A stretch of DNA of 64,000 nt from a virus: the IMG/VR virus record IMGVR_UViG_3300005918_000012; one strand, written 5' to 3'. This document shows positions 47,668 through 60,624 of the stretch, in pieces. The notes beneath the pieces were generated by a model. That model saw only the letters and a list, made by a program, of their open reading frames with translations, was not told where the DNA came from and searched no databases. Each line of letters opens with the position of its first letter. Positions within the stretch are counted from its first letter, which is position 1. The position numbers and the translations under genes were made by a program.

Positions 47668-49305
47668 ATGAAAACACTATTAAGATCCACATTCATAGGT
47701 GCTCCGGGTGATAATCCTGATTTATTTCTCCGAAATTACATTAAATTAGATGATTCAGGGTTACATTTTGATCTTCCTGAAGACGTGGTTATTTGGGAGT
47801 TCGTGAAACAATTTGTTCGGGCACATAACCACGCCCCTGATCTGACTACTTTAAAAACTCAGTTTGCTCGAACGAATGAGGATACGGTTACTGAACGTCT
47901 TCGAGTCTTGGAAAATATCAAAGGCTTCTCTCAGGGTGATTTTGATACCCGATTAGGAGCTAAAGTTGAAGAGCGTCGTATCCGTGAAGTCACAGAACTG
48001 ATGAAAGACTCCAGTACTATCTTAACGACAGGGCTGGAGATCAGGAATGGCAAAGAGAAAAGGATACTGAAAGGACCGATGGAAGCGGTTCATTATTTCT
48101 TAGAGAAAAGTCATTCCGTTGTTGCTCCTTCTTCTGGTTCCCGGCTTTCAGGTGAGGTAACGGGAGATGGAGAAGACTTCTCCCGCCGGTATGAGAAAGT
48201 TGAAGCTGACCCTCTGGCTGGAATCGGTCAGCATACTGGACTAACTCAGATAGATGTTGCTACCAATGGGGCCAGAAAGTTTGAGCTGTGGATTCATGCA
48301 GCTTTTACAGGTGGTATGAAATCCACTTGGGTTCTTAATTGGATTTACAATCAGGCTATTTACCATCTCCATTCTAATCTGTTATTCAGTCTGGAGATGC
48401 CTTATATCCAATGCCGTAATATCCTGTGGGCTATCCACAGTAGTCACCCTAAATTCAGGCTTATCAGATATTTCCTTGGCCTTCAATCTAACCCAACAGA
48501 AACAGTCGGGTTGAATTATGAACAAATCCGTGATGGGACGCTGGAGCCGAATGCTAGAAAGTTCCTGTTTGATTATGTCACACCTGATTACAATGGTAAA
48601 CCTGTTGATGTGGATACCTGTCCTCTGACGGGTGATAAATATCACGACCCTCAGACTAAAGAAATTTTGACTTGTACTGTGGATGAGTTTGGCAAACCTC
48701 ATCCTAAGTCAAGTGACTACGGAAAAATATTCATTGAGGTTGCAGACCCGACCAAAATGGACTTCACGATGGACCAGCTCAGGCAGAAGGCCGAGCTTAT
48801 CTATTCTAAAACTCCATTCAGGATGATTGTCATCGATCACGTTAGTTTACTTTCACCTCGTAAATGGGTGGCAAGTCGTACTGACCGAGATAATGAGATC
48901 ATTCGTGATACAAAGAAGTTGGCTATGTCATTCAATCGTGGTGCAGGAATGGCTGTTGTGGCATTGTTCCAGATATCTCGTGAGGGTTACAGGTCGGCTC
49001 TGAAGATCAAGGAGAAAACGGGTACGGCTCGATATGAAGTTACGGCTTTATCTTATGCCAATGAAGCTGAGAGGTCAGCGGATATTGTCACATCCTCGTG
49101 GATTGATGATGATCTGATGGGAGCTAACAGGGTTCAGTTCCAGTGCTTAAAATCTCGTGATCAGAAGCCCTTTGAGATGTTCTTAGCTCGTGTAGAATGG
49201 CCTTGTCGTCGTGTACTGACATGTTTCGATATGCCAATGACGACTAATCAAAATCAAGCTGTTGGAGCTGAAGTTGATGCCGCAGTGAATATTTTAGATT
49301 TATGA
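47668..49305 (+). CDS. dnaB: DnaB-like replicative helicase
   Basis: 'AAFTGGMKST', 'FSLEM', 'IVIDHVSLL', 'LFQISREG', 'SYANEAERSADIV' and 'LKSRD'. Confidence 0.85.
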   Translation: MKTLLRSTFIGAPGDNPDLFLRNYIKLDDSGLHFDLPEDVVIWEFVKQFVRAHNHAPDLTTLKTQFARTNEDTVTERLRVLENIKGFSQGDFDTRLGAKVEERRIREVTELMKDSSTILTTGLEIRNGKEKRILKGPMEAVHYFLEKSHSVVAPSSGSRLSGEVTGDGEDFSRRYEKVEADPLAGIGQHTGLTQIDVATNGARKFELWIHAAFTGGMKSTWVLNWIYNQAIYHLHSNLLFSLEMPYIQCRNILWAIHSSHPKFRLIRYFLGLQSNPTETVGLNYEQIRDGTLEPNARKFLFDYVTPDYNGKPVDVDTCPLTGDKYHDPQTKEILTCTVDEFGKPHPKSSDYGKIFIEVADPTKMDFTMDQLRQKAELIYSKTPFRMIVIDHVSLLSPRKWVASRTDRDNEIIRDTKKLAMSFNRGAGMAVVALFQISREGYRSALKIKEKTGTARYEVTALSYANEAERSADIVTSSWIDDDLMGANRVQFQCLKSRDQKPFEMFLARVEWPCRRVLTCFDMPMTTNQNQAVGAEVDAAVNILDL

Positions 49306-51500
49306 GAGTTATAACTGTTGGTAGAACCCCATTGATTAAGACCACCCCGATGAACTGTGCTATATTGGGTACAGGAGCTTTAAACATCGATGGGTGTAGG
49401 ATTGGGGAAGACCAGCAGAATCCTGGAGGTCGTTGGCCTGCTAATGTTATTTTGAGTCACCCTAAAGAGTGTCGATCTGGGTATTGTATATCAAGTTGTC
49501 CAGTGAAACAACTGGATATTGACAGCCTTGAAGCAGGTATCCATGCTGCGGGTAATAAGAAGAAGGCTTCGACCACGAAAAAAGGTAATACTTTTCACTT
49601 TGAAGCTTTCGATCACAACCCTGACTATTATAATGATTCAGGTGGTGCTTCACGATTTTTTAAATGCTTAAAGGAAGATGAGTTTATGAATATCCCACAA
49701 GAACTTTTAGATTACCTCTTAACGATGATCTCTACTCCTGATATGAAAGCTCTTTACAACGATGACATCAGTACCTGGAAGGTCGGGGAAGAAAAAGATA
49801 ATTCATATCCAGGGCTTGTAGCTTATGGGCAACCGACTGAGGAACAAGCAGCAGATCTGAAAAGAGTTTTAATGCCTGGTGCTCATCTTTTACTGATTGC
49901 CCCAGAGTCAGAACCAACAGGGCATACTGGAACTTGTAGGGTTGAGGATGCAGGCTTTGAAATTCGTGATGCTATCCTATGGATCAGAGAAGCAGGTCAT
50001 TTCCATTATGTTCCCAAAGCTTCACGTTCAGAACGTGAAGCAGGCTGTCAAACAGTTTCTGTAAGTGGTGCTGAGGCTGTAGGGCGTAAAGAGGGGTCTG
50101 ATGGTTTAGATAGTCCACGAGCAGGGGCTATTAAGAACTTCCATCCTTGTTTACACCCTGATACATTAGTGATGACTATAAGAGGTTATCGTCCTATAGG
50201 TGAAATAAAAATTGGAGATCAGGTGTTTAGTGCTGATGGGGGATTTCATATTGTAAAGGATGTTAGCCGTCACCTTTACACTTCTAGTCACCTGTATGAC
50301 ATTGGTGTTCATGGGACTAATTATTCGGCCCCCTCTTCAGATAACCACCCCTATTTAATATGGAGACCTGAACGAAAACGGAATTCCATTGTAGGAGGTT
50401 GTGCTTCTTGGATTGAGGCAAAAGATATTAAAAAAGGGGATTATACCATGACTCCTTTATGTAATTCATTTTCTACTGATGTGATATATCCTGATGATAT
50501 TGAACTTTGGTTTATGTTTGGATTGTATTTAGCTGATGGGGTTCTTCAACAGGCAGGACATGGATCTAACAGATATCCTTCGTATTCATTGGGTCTTGAT
50601 AAACCCCAACTAATTAAAAGAGTACAAAAATATTTTGAAAATACTGGTGTGAATGTTGGGGTTTATCCAAAATCTCGAAGTAAAGCAGTTCAATTAATAG
50701 CTTTTAATCCCAAAATAGGGCAGATGTTTGATTTGTATGGGGGTCAACATGCAGATACTAAAACATTAGCTCCTGACTTACTTGTAGCTAATGTTTCAAT
50801 TAAAAAAGCAATTTTGGATGGGTATTTGGCAGGAGATGGTTGTCAAGTAAAAGGCCGTTTATACAAACAAGCTAAAACGGTTTCTCCTGATCTTGCTTCC
50901 TTGATGGCTTTATTAGGAGATTCTATAGGGTATCGGACTAATTTGTTCAGATATGACCCCTTAATGGGTAAGGGTATTGGAGATCGAAAATTTAAGACTA
51001 CACTACCAACTTACCATTTATATTTTTATAGTCAAAATCAGAAACGGGTTGACCGTAAAAACTCACGTCCTACTTATATCGAGTATCAAGGCCAAACATA
51101 CCTTCTTCGATATGTTAAAGAAATCAAATCTGTTAGTTATACTGGGGTCGTTGTCAATTTGACTGTAGAAGGGTCACCAACTTTTCAAACCGTTGTAGGA
51201 ATGAGCCATAATACGGTTAAGCCTATTAAGTTGATGGAATGTTTATTGGATGGTATTCCTGTGGATAATGGTCCAGTAATGGACCCGTTTATGGGCAGCG
51301 GCTCAACTGGGATTGCGTGTCTCCATACTGGCCATGATTTTATTGGGACTGATAGAGAAAAAGATTATGTTGGTATTGCTACTTCCCGAATTCGTCACTG
51401 GGATAGTGAACAGGGGTATATAAATAGAGAAGTGGTTTCAGATTTCAAATCCGAAACCGAAGAAAAAGAACCTGTGGATTTGTGGGATATGGAAGATTAA
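49302..51500 (+). CDS. Permuted beta-class DNA amino-methyltransferase subunit: ARKP module + degenerate catalytic half + intein + SAM-binding half
   Basis: MRVITVGRTP...GTGALNIDGCRI...GRWPANVI...SRFFK; LKRVLMPGAHLL...VEDAGFEIRD; KASRSER; NFHP|intein|TVKP; VMDPFMGSGSTG. No DPPY motif. Confidence 0.85.
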   Translation: MRVITVGRTPLIKTTPMNCAILGTGALNIDGCRIGEDQQNPGGRWPANVILSHPKECRSGYCISSCPVKQLDIDSLEAGIHAAGNKKKASTTKKGNTFHFEAFDHNPDYYNDSGGASRFFKCLKEDEFMNIPQELLDYLLTMISTPDMKALYNDDISTWKVGEEKDNSYPGLVAYGQPTEEQAADLKRVLMPGAHLLLIAPESEPTGHTGTCRVEDAGFEIRDAILWIREAGHFHYVPKASRSEREAGCQTVSVSGAEAVGRKEGSDGLDSPRAGAIKNFHPCLHPDTLVMTIRGYRPIGEIKIGDQVFSADGGFHIVKDVSRHLYTSSHLYDIGVHGTNYSAPSSDNHPYLIWRPERKRNSIVGGCASWIEAKDIKKGDYTMTPLCNSFSTDVIYPDDIELWFMFGLYLADGVLQQAGHGSNRYPSYSLGLDKPQLIKRVQKYFENTGVNVGVYPKSRSKAVQLIAFNPKIGQMFDLYGGQHADTKTLAPDLLVANVSIKKAILDGYLAGDGCQVKGRLYKQAKTVSPDLASLMALLGDSIGYRTNLFRYDPLMGKGIGDRKFKTTLPTYHLYFYSQNQKRVDRKNSRPTYIEYQGQTYLLRYVKEIKSVSYTGVVVNLTVEGSPTFQTVVGMSHNTVKPIKLMECLLDGIPVDNGPVMDPFMGSGSTGIACLHTGHDFIGTDREKDYVGIATSRIRHWDSEQGYINREVVSDFKSETEEKEPVDLWDMED
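50148..51212 (+). mobile_element. Intein with LAGLIDADG endonuclease (355 aa) in the HP|TVKP motif
   Basis: Starts CLHPDT, ends MSHN, +1 residue is Thr. Contains 'FGLYLADG' and 'LDGYLAGDG'. Confidence 0.92.
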
Positions 51501-52466: not shown

Positions 52467-52763
52467 ATGTCTAAACTTTTAACCACTGATAAAGAGAGAA
52501 AAGATTTATCTTTTCTGGACTGGAGTTCTGAATCTATTGGTAATGCTGTTAAAGATTCTGCTGTTAAAATATGCCAGTATAACAAAGCTCCTTACGATGC
52601 ATCAGGTAAAGATCTAATTCGTCTGAAAGCTGCTATGCTCGTAGTCCTTAATATTATGGAAAAGTCAAATGCTGAGACATTTACCCAAGAGATGCTTGAT
52701 GTAACAATCAAAGAGGTAAATATCGGAGATTACCAGATGAAGGTAACTAAGGTGAAAAGATGA
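52467..52763 (+). CDS. Hypothetical protein
   Basis: 98 aa, AAGGA RBS. Confidence 0.65.
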   Translation: MSKLLTTDKERKDLSFLDWSSESIGNAVKDSAVKICQYNKAPYDASGKDLIRLKAAMLVVLNIMEKSNAETFTQEMLDVTIKEVNIGDYQMKVTKVKR

Positions 52764-52791
52764 AACAGAACCCAGTTCCACAAACACTCCA
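52760..52791 (+). repeat. Remnant original 5' end of the methyltransferase gene, duplicated at 53600-53649
   Basis: atgaaacagaacccagttccacaaacactccatt (MKQNPVPQTL) versus atgaaaaggaaacagaacccccgtagggtggttccacaaacacttcaatt (MKRKQNPRRVVPQTL). Confidence 0.8.
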
Positions 52792-53535
52792 TTATGTTGG
52801 GGGCTTGTATGTACGAACATCTTCTATTTCCTTTTTCATCTGTCCCATACGAACCCACACACTTTTCCCTGGTTTAAAGGATGTCCACAAATGAACAGCC
52901 TTTTTCCAAATACGGAAATCATTAGCTTTCTTAGCCCTAATAGGGTATTGGTCGATAATACTAACCAAGGTAGGACAGTCGGCTTTAGTATCTACTATCC
53001 AAACCATACAAGGCTTACTATTCCCATTTCTCGATCTGTCAGGTTTCAATCTACCAAGTTGGAGTTTATTGACAATCTCAGTCAAAATAGGGGTGTCATC
53101 ATCTCGAAGTTTCAACGAGAAGGCACAACCGAAATATGCACCTTTTCGAACTTTGTGGATTCGAAAACACCCTTCTCCGGCAATGAAACCTGCCAACCAA
53201 TGTCCGAAACCATTAGTCAAGACAGGAGTAGGAGTTGGTGGGGGTGGTTGATAGGGGCCGCAGATAGGACGTGGAGACAGACCTTGTGTACGTGCTTTAT
53301 AATGGCATTCTTTGGAACACAAAGGAAGTCCTGCATCAGCTTTTTTAGCTGTCGAGGGAGGGCGTTCAAAAACAGTTCCACAGATAACACAGGTGTAAGA
53401 TTTAGATTTTTTAAGTTGTTGGGCTCGGAATTTATACGAGCATTTACGGGAGCATGTGGTTTGTCTTCCGTGTTTAAGACGTTTAGGATCAGCTTGATAG
53501 GTTTTTTTACATATCGGGCATGTTCTAGTTTGCAT
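52792..53535 (-). mobile_element. Free-standing single-motif LAGLIDADG homing endonuclease with two N-terminal Cys4 zinc-finger repeats
   Basis: 'WLAGFIAGEGCF'; CPICK..CSRKC and CVICG..CSKEC; AGGAGG RBS. Antisense to the surrounding operon. Confidence 0.85.
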
Positions 53536-53553
53536 TATTAAACCTCCTGTGAT

Positions 53554-53583
53554 ACTGTATCATGGACTAGGTTTTATTGTCAA
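53554..53583 (-). promoter_or_regulatory. Sigma70-like promoter of the homing endonuclease
   Basis: Minus strand reads TTGACA-N18-TACAGT with an extended TG, just upstream of AGGAGG. Confidence 0.6.
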
Positions 53584-53599
53584 GAGATAGGATGAAATA

Positions 53600-54481
53600 A
53601 TGAAAAGGAAACAGAACCCCCGTAGGGTGGTTCCACAAACACTTCAATTGCTCATGGGAGATTGCAAAGAAAAAATGCAATCTTTTGCTGAAGGCAGTAT
53701 TGGAAGTATTGTTTGTGATCCGCCCTATGGCTAACTTAGCTTATCCTTTATGAACAAGAAATGGGATAACCTTGATGAATGGAAGTCAGGGGCAGGGATG
53801 AGTAAACCTGGTATTGGCCAACGTGAGATTGAATGGCCTTCTTTAGGAGGAACTCAACCTTTCGGTGGAGCCAATCCAACATGTAAAGCCTGTGGTGGCC
53901 GTCTAAGAGGGGCTAAGAAATGTACCTGTGACGAACCAGAATGGGTTGTGGCTGGTGAACCTGTAGGAGACGGTGCAGACGCAGCCTTAAACATCTCCTT
54001 GGACAATATACACACTCAACAGGCTTGGCATCTGAATTGGTTGGTGGAAGCCTTCAGGGTATTGAAACCTGGAGGTGTCCTAAAAGCTTTCGGTGGCACC
54101 CGCACTTACCACCGGTTGGCAGCAGCTATGGAACAGGCAGGCTTTGTAGAAATTCATATGGATGCCTGGATATACGGATCTGGATTTCCGAAGTCATTAA
54201 ACATATCAAAGGCTTTGGATAAGAAAATTGGAGTTGAACCACAAGTAATAGGAACTACAACAGGTAAAGGTGGGGATAATGTCAACAATCAATCCCGACC
54301 AGGCAAAGGTGATAGTCTTTCTGCCAAAGGGTGTGGAGCTTATGGGGCAGGGGTAAAACAAGTCAATATTCAAATACCACTGACCTTACCTACTTCGGAT
54401 ATTGCCAAGAAGTTTGAAGGCTATGGGACGGCACTCAAGCCCGCTTGGGAAATAATAGTGGTAGGGAGGAAACCAGAATGA
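53600..54481 (+). CDS. Catalytic (DPPY) half of a beta-class DNA amino-methyltransferase, interrupted by an in-frame TAA at 53732-53734
   Basis: LLMGDCKEKM...SIVCDPPYG[TAA CTT AGC]LSFMNKKWD...FRVLKPGG...GGTRTYHRL...WIYGSGFPKSLNISKALDK...GYGTALKPAWEIIVVGRKPE*. No FxGxG motif. The 44-codon 5' part is missing from the ORF track. Confidence 0.85.
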
Positions 54482-57389: not shown

Positions 57390-57873
57390 GTAAAAGAATG
57401 ATAGTTATTACCGTAGCCCGAAAACCTATTTCAGGTTCTGTGGTGGGAAACATAGTCCAATGGGGTACTTGTGGACTCAATATTGATGCCTGCCGTATCG
57501 GATATGAAGACACCCCTAACGTAGCATCAAATCCATTGTTTCGAACACAACAAGGATATTCATTCAAGCATGGTTCAGACCGTGGGGCAGCTTTCCAAAT
57601 TCAGAAAAAAGACGGTGACATCAAGATTAACCCTGCTGGCCGTTGGCCTTCTAATGTGATTTTGGGTCAAAATGCTGTAGCAGCAATGGATAAACAGTCT
57701 TCAGTTACAAAGAACATAGTCCGACACATGAGTTACCAACGGTCAGGTGGAGAATTCATTGATGGGATACCTTCTCAACCTGAGAAAGGCTGGCATGTGA
57801 CTGAACCTAACAAACCTTCCAGATTCTTCAAGCAGGTAAAAGAATGATAGTTATTACCGTAGCCCGAAAACCT
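57388..57873 (+). repeat. Perfect 40-bp direct repeat at module junctions (57388-57427 / 57834-57873), with a near-copy at about 62615-62660
   Basis: aggtaaaagaatgatagttattaccgtagcccgaaaacct. Confidence 0.92.
57398..57847 (+). CDS. Stand-alone ARKP module (middle, TRD-position region of a phage beta-class MTase)
   Basis: MIVITVARKP...GTCGLNIDACRI...GRWPSNVI...SRFFKQVKE. Confidence 0.8.
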   Translation: MIVITVARKPISGSVVGNIVQWGTCGLNIDACRIGYEDTPNVASNPLFRTQQGYSFKHGSDRGAAFQIQKKDGDIKINPAGRWPSNVILGQNAVAAMDKQSSVTKNIVRHMSYQRSGGEFIDGIPSQPEKGWHVTEPNKPSRFFKQVKE

Positions 57874-60624
57874 TTCCCGAAGACACTGGTGAGCAACATC
57901 CAGAAGAACGGGACAGGCTGCATCAACATTGATGCTTGCCGAATAACCCCAACAGGGGAATGGTTGGGTGGTGGGGACGAACGGCCTGAAACTATTGACA
58001 AGAAACAGAGTCATTGGAGTCAGCCGTGGATGCATCGTTCTGAAGATGCCAAACGTCATGCTGAAATGATGAAGGAAGATATCAAACGACATTCATTGAT
58101 GGGTAGATTCCCTGCCAATATTATTTTGGAACATAACCCTGACTGTGTCTCTTTAGGTCTGGCCAAGATCAAAGGTTTTCCGCAAGTCAATGTTGATAAA
58201 CTCCCTGTAGAAGAACGTATCCAATCTGGAGAACAACATGGCCACATCTGGGGTCGTGGTGTAGGGATTGGTGTGAAGGGTGTCAGCTATACCGTTGGGT
58301 TCGGTGACGAATCAGGTCAGGAATCCGTTGAATCTTGGGAGTGTGTGGGTGATTGTCCTGTACGGCAGATTGACGTACAGAGTGGCAACTCTTTATCTTC
58401 TGGTGGCCGAACTGCTAATATCTCTACTACTTCTAAAATCTATGGTGGTGGGAAAGGTTTGGGGCAGGATCTTTTAGCTGATGATGTGAAAGGAGACCCG
58501 GGCTACGGTGATTTAGGCGGGGCTTCCCGATATTTCAAACAGATAAAACAGGAGTCTAAATTGGAAAAAGGAATTAATGTATTATCTTTATTTGACGGGA
58601 TGAGCTGCGGGCAAATAGCTCTTAACCGACTGGGCATTAAATATGATAAATACTTTGCCAGTGAGATTGATAAACATTCTATGGCCGTTACTATGCATAA
58701 CTATCCCGACACAATTCAACTGGGTGATGTCACACAGGTATTTGCTAAAGACTTGCCTCAGATTGATCTCTTGATAGGTGGTTCTCCATGTTTTGTGGCT
58801 GGTACAAAAATCATTTGTGAAAAGGGTATTCGGTCAATTGAAGACATTTGTGTTGGTAATAAGGTGTTAACTCATAAAGGTCGTTACAAGAAAATTATAA
58901 GAATAGGTAATGATAGTAAGCCATTATGCACTTTATTAAGTCAAGGGGCCACTGAAACTACAACTACAGCCAATCACCCCTATTATGTCAGAACACGAAA
59001 AAAATTATGGAATAACAATAAAAGAACTTATGAATGGGTTTTTAGTGATCCTGAATGGGTAGAGGTTTGTGATATAAAAATTGGTGATTATATTGGGACA
59101 CCGATCTTGAGAACTGAAAAAAACCCTTTAAACTTGTCTTCTGATGAATGTTATTTATTAGGGCTTTATATAGGAGATGGACATACGAGAAAAGACTACA
59201 GGACCTCAGAAAACCGACCTAATGATAGACATTGGCAGTTAATTATATCGGTAGGGAAACACGAAAAGGTTTCATTTAAGAAGAATATAAAACTAAAACA
59301 TTCTTTTTACGAACATACCAAAAGTGTTTACAGGGCTGTTTTTTCCAGTAAACACCTAGTGAAAATAGCGGAGAAACATTGTGGGGTAGGGGCTAAAAAC
59401 AAATATCTGTCTAAAATGCTGTTGGATTTACCAAAACCTTTATTAGAGAAAGTTCTGGAGGGTTATCTTTTTGCAGATGGTAGTTGTAGAAGAGAAACCT
59501 ATAGGACCACAACAATTTCCAAGAGTCTGGTAGAAACTTTAGCATTAGCAGTAGCAAAAGTATATAGGACAACTTGTTCTATCGAGTATACAGTTAGACC
59601 TGCAAAGACCATCATTGAAGGACGTGTTGTAAACCAACAAAACACATATACAATAACTTACAGGAAATACCATACAAAACAATCTCGTGCTTGGGTCATT
59701 GAGGATGTAGTATGGAATCCAGTGAAGAAAATAAAAAATATAGGGGTAGTAGATACCGTTTATAACCTTGAGGTGGGTAAAGATAACTCCTATGTGGCTA
59801 ATAACCATATAGTACATAATTGTCAGGGGTTCAGTTTTGCTGGGAAGCAGTTGAATTTCAAAGACCCTCGGAGTATGTTGTTCTTTGAGTTCGTTCGATT
59901 GCTCCGAGAATGCAAACCTAAATACTTCTTGTTAGAGAACGTCAAGATGAAACGAGAGTATGAGTATGCTATCACTGAGCTGTTAGGTGTAAGCTGTGCT
60001 CGAATCAATTCCAACCTTGTATCAGCTCAGAATCGTTCCCGTTTATACTGGACAAATATTCCAGGTGAAGGTGATTACGTTATTGGGAGTTTTATTGATC
60101 AGCCCGAAGACAAAGGAATCCTTCTTCAAGATATTTTGGAAGATAACCAGTTAAAAGAACCAGTGGTCTTGAGACCTGCTCGAAGTGAAGAAGGGAAAAG
60201 GATACGGAAAGAACATCAAGCTACACACGGTACTGATTATACTCCGTTCCAAGCTAAAGTCCAACTCCCTAGGACTGATGGGAAAGCAAATTGCCTTACC
60301 ACTTCTCTCTTAGACAATAAGATCATTGACAAAGCATTATGGAGAAAGACAGAGGAATTCCCATATAAAGCAGACACTCCTTCCAGCCCGGAAGGGAAAG
60401 CTAAATGTTTGAGAGCCGAAGCTGGGGGGAAGACTAGAGGGATTGGGGTTTTCAATGAAGATAAAACTCAGTATCGGCTATTAACCCCGGAAGAATGTGA
60501 AGCTTTACAAACCGTCCCACGAGGATATACGTCCCCAGCTTCAAGATCACAAAGATGCCGGATGCTTGGAAACGGTTGGACTATAGATGTTATTACACAT
60601 ATAATGAAAGGTATGGAGCTATGA
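57844..60624 (+). CDS. ARKP module fused to an intein-containing C5-cytosine DNA methyltransferase
   Basis: Residues 1-~235 are an ARKP module. Then 'VLSLFDGMSCG', 'SEID', 'GGSP|intein|CQGFS', 'LLENV', 'QNRSRLYW', 'RLLTPEECEALQ' and 'LGNGW'. A possible internal TTG start at 58561 has AGGAG upstream. Confidence 0.9.
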   Translation: MIVITVARKPFPKTLVSNIQKNGTGCINIDACRITPTGEWLGGGDERPETIDKKQSHWSQPWMHRSEDAKRHAEMMKEDIKRHSLMGRFPANIILEHNPDCVSLGLAKIKGFPQVNVDKLPVEERIQSGEQHGHIWGRGVGIGVKGVSYTVGFGDESGQESVESWECVGDCPVRQIDVQSGNSLSSGGRTANISTTSKIYGGGKGLGQDLLADDVKGDPGYGDLGGASRYFKQIKQESKLEKGINVLSLFDGMSCGQIALNRLGIKYDKYFASEIDKHSMAVTMHNYPDTIQLGDVTQVFAKDLPQIDLLIGGSPCFVAGTKIICEKGIRSIEDICVGNKVLTHKGRYKKIIRIGNDSKPLCTLLSQGATETTTTANHPYYVRTRKKLWNNNKRTYEWVFSDPEWVEVCDIKIGDYIGTPILRTEKNPLNLSSDECYLLGLYIGDGHTRKDYRTSENRPNDRHWQLIISVGKHEKVSFKKNIKLKHSFYEHTKSVYRAVFSSKHLVKIAEKHCGVGAKNKYLSKMLLDLPKPLLEKVLEGYLFADGSCRRETYRTTTISKSLVETLALAVAKVYRTTCSIEYTVRPAKTIIEGRVVNQQNTYTITYRKYHTKQSRAWVIEDVVWNPVKKIKNIGVVDTVYNLEVGKDNSYVANNHIVHNCQGFSFAGKQLNFKDPRSMLFFEFVRLLRECKPKYFLLENVKMKREYEYAITELLGVSCARINSNLVSAQNRSRLYWTNIPGEGDYVIGSFIDQPEDKGILLQDILEDNQLKEPVVLRPARSEEGKRIRKEHQATHGTDYTPFQAKVQLPRTDGKANCLTTSLLDNKIIDKALWRKTEEFPYKADTPSSPEGKAKCLRAEAGGKTRGIGVFNEDKTQYRLLTPEECEALQTVPRGYTSPASRSQRCRMLGNGWTIDVITHIMKGMEL
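58789..59820 (+). mobile_element. Intein with LAGLIDADG endonuclease (344 aa) at the catalytic P|C of the C5 MTase
   Basis: Starts CFVAGT, ends IVHN, +1 residue is Cys. Contains 'LGLYIGDG' and 'LEGYLFADG'. Confidence 0.93.

Follow-up and report, generated by a model that had tools for sequence, protein, structure and literature searches.

A stop-containing gap beside a homing-endonuclease cassette in a phage methylase gene, and a possible ribosomal hop across it

How can a DNA methylase gene stay under selection when a stop codon interrupts it directly behind its DPPYG motif? The question is raised by a locus in the window analysed here, that is, the whole 64,000-nucleotide stretch of IMG/VR virus record IMGVR_UViG_3300005918_000012. 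The window matches a 402-kb contig, read here as a jumbo phage, that carries baseplate, helicase and primase-like genes. A 44-codon ORF from 53600 stops at a TAA and the same frame resumes six bases on, into a 243-aa ORF. The codons run from GAT (53717) through GGC (53729–53731, the candidate take-off codon), TAA (53732–53734), CTT (53735–53737) and AGC (53738–53740) to a resumed L-S-F-M, whose ATG lies at 53750. A first-pass annotation had suggested that the ribosome might hop from GGC to AGC. The gap also explains why such genes are recurrently mis-annotated, with a 44-aa ORF followed by a truncated methylase.

The interrupted gene and its empty sister allele

We found the 9-nt insert in all eight ENA/JGI assemblies fetched, one of them a variant with eight nearby substitutions, which rules out an assembly error. 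Its excision (53732–53740) restores the family consensus, as first noted, and yields the sequence of the intact sister genes (L277/L278 and L001). The eight substitutions of L012 near the gap are all silent, but the look-up demanded an identical protein and they were not counted as selection. Compared with 53812–53932 of the window, L012 has a cluster of silent changes, several of which match the sister phage L277, suggesting recombination just 3' of the gap. The features of the locus are as follows.

52760..52791, plus strand: leftover 11 codons of the original methylase start, MKQNPVPQTL (alignment with intact L277)
52792..53535, minus strand: free-standing single-motif LAGLIDADG endonuclease, 247 aa, with a Cys-rich N-terminal region (Pfam LAGLIDADG_1, E = 1.4e-14)
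53543..53583, minus strand: Shine-Dalgarno and sigma-70-like promoter of the nuclease gene (promoter scan, 10/12)
53600..53731, plus strand: replacement for the 5' part of the methylase, 44 codons up to DPPYG (ORF and dN/dS against L277)
53714..53744, no strand: disrupted candidate nuclease target, a 22-bp pseudo-palindrome in intact alleles centred on the Tyr codon (7/11 pairs)
53732..53740, plus strand: coding gap with TAA stop, G-free spacer CTT and candidate landing codon AGC (codons as written)
53741..54481, plus strand: 3' part of the catalytic half, beta-class amino-methyltransferase, from L-S-F-M to GRKPE (Pfam N6_N4_Mtase)
49302, 57398, 57844, 62192 and 62635: five partner-module ORFs (shared starting strand)

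In the sister phage (L277 and L278, from two of the same samples), an intact methylase lies directly behind a 98-aa neighbour, with no nuclease. Compared with L277, the window carries an 837-bp insertion (52792–53628) flanked by two copies of an 18-bp gene-start stretch, 53629–53646 repeating 52774–52791 (16/18). The insertion holds the minus-strand LAGLIDADG gene and a duplicated methylase start (new start 53600), which is preceded by a Shine-Dalgarno sequence (AGGA, 53589–53592). The 32-nt remnant ahead of the insertion aligns to the start of the intact gene in L277, with similarity stopping at 52791. The nuclease promoter is a consensus match only, both of whose boxes recur in L279 and L281. 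A 216-codon open frame runs antisense to the nuclease (52891–53541, plus strand), with no evidence of being a gene. The nuclease gene is absent from L277, L278 and L001; the empty sister allele lacks nuclease and gap alike, and a cassette without the gap was not seen in any assembly. For the insert, the first-pass annotation had offered a bypass element and, among the alternatives, an insertion footprint; bypass still leads, but the immediate cause, the edge of a LAGLIDADG cassette, had been missed.

Single-motif LAGLIDADG enzymes act as homodimers with pseudo-palindromic targets. The candidate target at DPPY pairs at 7 of 11 positions in the same register in intact L277 and L001 (background 0.7%), the Pro and Gly codons contributing part of the symmetry, and the insert displaces its right half. 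The nuclease would cleave at this pseudo-palindrome, and the insert most likely confers immunity to the nuclease's own cut by destroying the target.

The enzyme belongs to the beta-class amino-methyltransferases, relatives of M.RsrI and CcrM (Pfam and solved structures), and the break sits in the variable loop that follows the DPPY strand. Purifying selection acts on both halves of the gene, and neither has a second lesion, in agreement with the initial impression that both sides are intact. Against the sister L277, dN/dS was 0.18 for the 5' part (53600–53731) and 0.12 for the 3' part. Neutral decay of the downstream part was not seen in the window (dN/dS of 0.06–0.15 against seven relatives), although homing replaces the 3' flank with sequence from intact genes and downstream conservation may therefore be inherited. 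Family-wide, dN/dS is ~0.1–0.4 in both halves, also between gap-bearing starts, and the downstream frames of gap alleles are as intact as those of uninterrupted genes.

The methylase is modular: its catalytic half (53600–54481) ends in GRKP, and a shared strand (M-I/R-VITV-A/G-R-K/T-P) opens all five partner ORFs. Only the partner at 49302 has the FxGxG end, and that at 57844 is fused to a C5 methylase. The layout is repeated in L001, L002, L277 and L279. Apart from the interrupted gene, the 64-kb window contains no DPPY gene. Inteins occur in two methylase ORFs of the window (49302–51500 and 57844–60624) and, at 308–1282, in the gap-bearing gene of L281, whose gap is 8 nt with a matched landing, so methylase genes have been repeatedly invaded by homing elements.

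A family of gap alleles at one methylase codon

Contrary to an insert unique to this genome, short stop-containing inserts recur at the DPPYG position. Pattern scans and look-ups gave 86 distinct gap alleles of 40 types, 5–24 nt long, in all three frames and in at least three methylase subfamilies; because the alleles are related, these counts overstate independence, and p-values treating types as independent are too small. The layout is a Gly codon, a stop and a near-G-free spacer, after which the family sequence resumes, with the conservation of Gly-stop being partly circular because the scans required it. A viral scan for a stop at this position returned 16 matches, 14 of them methylases, compared with two matches and no methylases for a control pattern of equal specificity with the stop one codon later. 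The stop at this position is therefore beyond chance. A bacterial genome scan contained one methylase (L246) among 95 matches, and a search of cultured phages found distant relatives only. Several paralogous methylase genes can share a contig (L014, L145 and L320), with intact and gap copies in L014 and two different gaps in L145.

Since 27 of the 40 gap types shift the frame, stop-codon readthrough cannot be the family mechanism. It could be considered for the window allele, where it would add three extra residues to the catalytic loop: this gap, like 13 of the 40 types, is in frame, has one stop and falls in a loop that varies. Yet TAA is the commonest stop of this phage, ending 19 of its 36 long ORFs, and no tRNA is found in the 64-kb window, which together with the frame-shifting types makes readthrough improbable here. 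Stop-codon reassignment was rejected, with the long ORFs of the window ending in TAA (n = 19), TGA (n = 14) and TAG (n = 3). Removal of the gap from RNA or DNA ahead of translation would be consistent with the consensus restored by precise excision, but we consider it very improbable: gaps as short as 5–6 nt without shared sequence cannot be ribozymes or bulge-helix-bulge introns, no Rfam match was found, and the cassette always comes with its gap in the assemblies. A self-splicing or bulge-helix-bulge intron was rejected on the same grounds for the full range of 5–24 nt.

The stop in the first 84 alleles was TGA in 74, TAA in 9 and TAG in 1. Spacers contain 6 G in 200 nt, compared with 27% G in the flanks, and are often C-rich. 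In 38 types no GG precedes the landing codon, leaving the gap free of premature landing sites, and a mini-Shine-Dalgarno 5–7 nt before landing is absent, the spacers being G-free. Such spacers permit neither premature landing nor a Shine-Dalgarno sequence, and so suit a sliding tRNA-Gly and are the reverse of what would signal re-initiation.

A Gly codon occupies the landing position in 30 of the 40 types, and three alleles (L058, L128 and L165) are exactly Gly-stop-Gly. The 10 non-Gly landings mostly have base 1 changed (AGC, AGT, TGT and CGC), and the residues that follow are still conserved. Across the family, the third bases of take-off and landing codons showed no significant matching (13 types go from GGY to GGR; Fisher p = 0.22); neither in those 13 types nor in the window (GGC to AGC) is the landing codon matched to the take-off tRNA. 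Landings similar to the mismatched AGC recur in seven lineages, and AGC or AGT occurs in three others besides the window's, two with frame-shifting gaps (L029, and L526 with AGT), suggesting that a two-of-three match is tolerated.

Gaps and nucleases are associated beyond the window. Of 32 gap loci, 10 have an HNH or LAGLIDADG gene immediately upstream, and none was found directly upstream of 59 intact loci among the families listed (25 of 39 shown). Most gap loci have no adjacent nuclease, so a gap can persist without one. Homologs of the window nuclease, picked regardless of any gap, adjoin methylases divergently, with Gly-stop gaps of 17 nt in L522 and 14 nt in L526; among the viral contigs searched, no relatives of this nuclease were found. 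L526 retains an old methylase start that runs up to DPPY, which places the original insertion point there. A 14-nt gap in L528 lies beside a protein sharing the N-terminal region of the window nuclease.

In L528/L529 (161–2325), the Cys-rich N-terminus of the window nuclease is combined with a different, Vsr-like C-terminal region, and the adjoining 14-nt gap has TGT as its landing codon; in P0174–P0199 this N-terminus is joined to HNH, amounting to modular nuclease swapping. Within the TTAC subfamily, the HNH gene continues in frame from the stranded old methylase start (L015, 1150–1758; L019, 5230–5850; L053, 3931–4611, minus strand) and may use the initiation signals of that fused start.

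Crossing the gap in the window allele

For the window allele we lean towards the following account. A homing-endonuclease cassette would have invaded the methylase at its DPPY codons, stranding the old start and supplying a duplicate one. The cassette ends in the short insert with its stop codon, which would destroy the site that the nuclease itself recognises, and a short ribosomal hop would keep the methylase expressed. With peptidyl-tRNA-Gly on GGC and the stop in the A site, the codon would be released and the tRNA would slide across a spacer with no competing Gly codon. It would then re-pair at the next Gly-like triplet (here AGC, at two of three bases), and decoding would resume at Leu to give DPPYGLSFM. 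The first true GG 3' of the stop is at 53763, out of frame. We infer both the hop and its efficiency from comparison of sequences. The GGC-to-AGC bypass suggested at first thus stays the leading mechanism, given family gaps in all frames and G-free spacers, while its proposed hairpin fell away and the window gap is in frame with a mismatched AGC. Throttling or switching of methyltransferase output, also suggested at first, found nothing in support; a regulatory switch was set aside, with no evidence either way.

The hairpin, GCTAA-C-TTAGC, does form on paper (5 bp, 3-nt loop, ~-3 kcal/mol) but is weak and not beyond chance: it is gone in 36- and 101-nt folds (z of -0.4 to -1.0), and 9% of alternative 9-nt gaps reach an equally good fold. 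Several gap types have no hairpin at all and no take-off stem-loop is conserved across the family, so we rejected it as the defining signal. A different structure, a 5' helix formed by a G-rich stretch with Pro-Pro codons and showing compensating changes, occurs in 14 of 31 LxFM gap genes versus 0 of 126 intact genes. Only this helix differed, overall upstream folding being alike in gap and intact genes (p = 0.25 and 0.71), and it is missing from the window allele (3 of 5 pairs, z = +0.98).

Being in frame, with a TAA stop, a landing codon mismatched to its take-off GGC at the first position and no family 5' helix, the window allele is a weak, atypical member of its own gap family and may be inefficient or decaying; it probably hops less efficiently than matched alleles do. 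Taken further, the allele could be decayed or dead: the family would hop, but mutation of the landing to AGC would leave this copy yielding little or no enzyme, and the nuclease would spread the allele all the same. The mismatched landing and missing helix fit this, an intact nuclease could drive a costly allele, and odd alleles have precedents in L525 and L279. Nonetheless, two halves without a second lesion (dN/dS of 0.18 and 0.12 against the sister), a sole DPPY gene whose five partner modules are kept, and AGC or AGT landings recurring even with frame-shifting gaps (L029 and L526) argue against decay, which we judge unlikely but worth keeping in view.

Alternatively, the 44-aa DPPYG peptide could terminate, translation re-initiate at ATG 53750 and the two pieces assemble. 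A second split already divides the enzyme, which makes assembly in trans not far-fetched, the break lies in a loop, and an ATG stands three codons past the landing in 36 of 38 LxFM alleles. However, the Phe between gap and first Met, invariant in 65 homologs, would be lost, spacers avoid G where a Shine-Dalgarno sequence would lie (and ATG 53750 indeed has none, as originally remarked), and TTACKWD is kept in the TTAC subfamily, where 39 of 46 alleles have their first start as far as 14 codons away. We regard two polypeptides as an unlikely explanation too, although they fit two exceptional alleles better than a hop. In L525, on the minus strand near a 44-aa ORF (2260–2394) and beside an intact LAGLIDADG gene, the stop comes straight after the Tyr of DPPY, with a second stop two codons later and then G-I-S-F-M. 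In L279 (3970–3995) and L280 (21–46), two assemblies, a 7-nt insert follows the Tyr codon with no Gly take-off and no adjacent stop; it shifts to the +1 frame, and its stop overlaps the downstream ATG. These alleles, misfits for a hop, would be either dead or pointers to two-piece assembly.

Returning to the hop, we put forward, tentatively and with less assurance than for the window allele, that the gaps could be programmed stop-hops of very short length, forming a natural family that is widespread. At least two unrelated endonuclease families would have carried them into a single methylase codon, and they would work without the structures of gene 60 and even, as in the window allele, with a two-of-three landing match.

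Relation to known systems

Natural translational bypassing is known from few cases (PMC5009743). The present family would offer 40 natural gap designs of 5–24 nt, with matched and mismatched landings and sized for a simple reporter, and would give homing endonucleases a further way, next to introns and inteins, of entering conserved codons without killing the gene. Within the open-access literature searched, we found no description of a gap-bearing methylase family.

Among known cases, synthetic stop-hops, in which 9 nt specify one amino acid, were low-level and artificial (Weiss et al. 1987, as cited in PMC5009743). They have the codon-stop-codon geometry seen here, exactly so in the three Gly-stop-Gly alleles, and no natural in-frame stop hop was known to a 2016 review (PMC5009743). 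The 10-nt bypass in the terminase of Streptomyces phage Hau3 is likewise a short frame-breaking gap in a phage gene, and its junction peptide was seen in E. coli with a UAA version; unlike the methylase gaps, it has the hungry codon UUA as its trigger, is proposed to be regulatory and has no endonuclease cassette (PMC10732093). The mitochondrial byps of Magnusiomyces resemble the gaps in being short mobile inserts that tolerate imperfect landing, but they place an unused sense codon in the A site, use mitochondrial ribosomes and occupy many genes (PMC5009743). In mycobacteriophage methylases, the ShiLan HNH insertion is also a homing endonuclease targeting a phage methylase without intron or intein, although it is in frame, with no stop and no bypass proposed (PMC11855218).

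The closest parallel is T4 mobA/gene 60. Its host gene is a topoisomerase rather than a methylase; the window nuclease is a LAGLIDADG enzyme (HNH in other gap alleles), and the gap is 9 nt (5–24 in the family) as opposed to 20–50. The gap family, known here from sequence alone, also differs from gene 60 in having no conserved take-off stem-loop, no mini-Shine-Dalgarno and no strictly matched landing, whereas third bases of take-off and landing are matched in gene 60 homologs. Common to both are a free-standing homing endonuclease, a stranded old start and a cassette-borne replacement start (PMC5009743; bioRxiv 10.1101/2022.08.31.505936), as well as a Gly take-off codon with an adjacent stop and a gap without premature landing sites (PMC5009743). 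In both, too, the insert lies at an invariant residue, where it plausibly blocks re-cutting, with ~44–46 codons before take-off. By this analogy, the best account of the window system would be a miniature of T4 mobA/gene 60.
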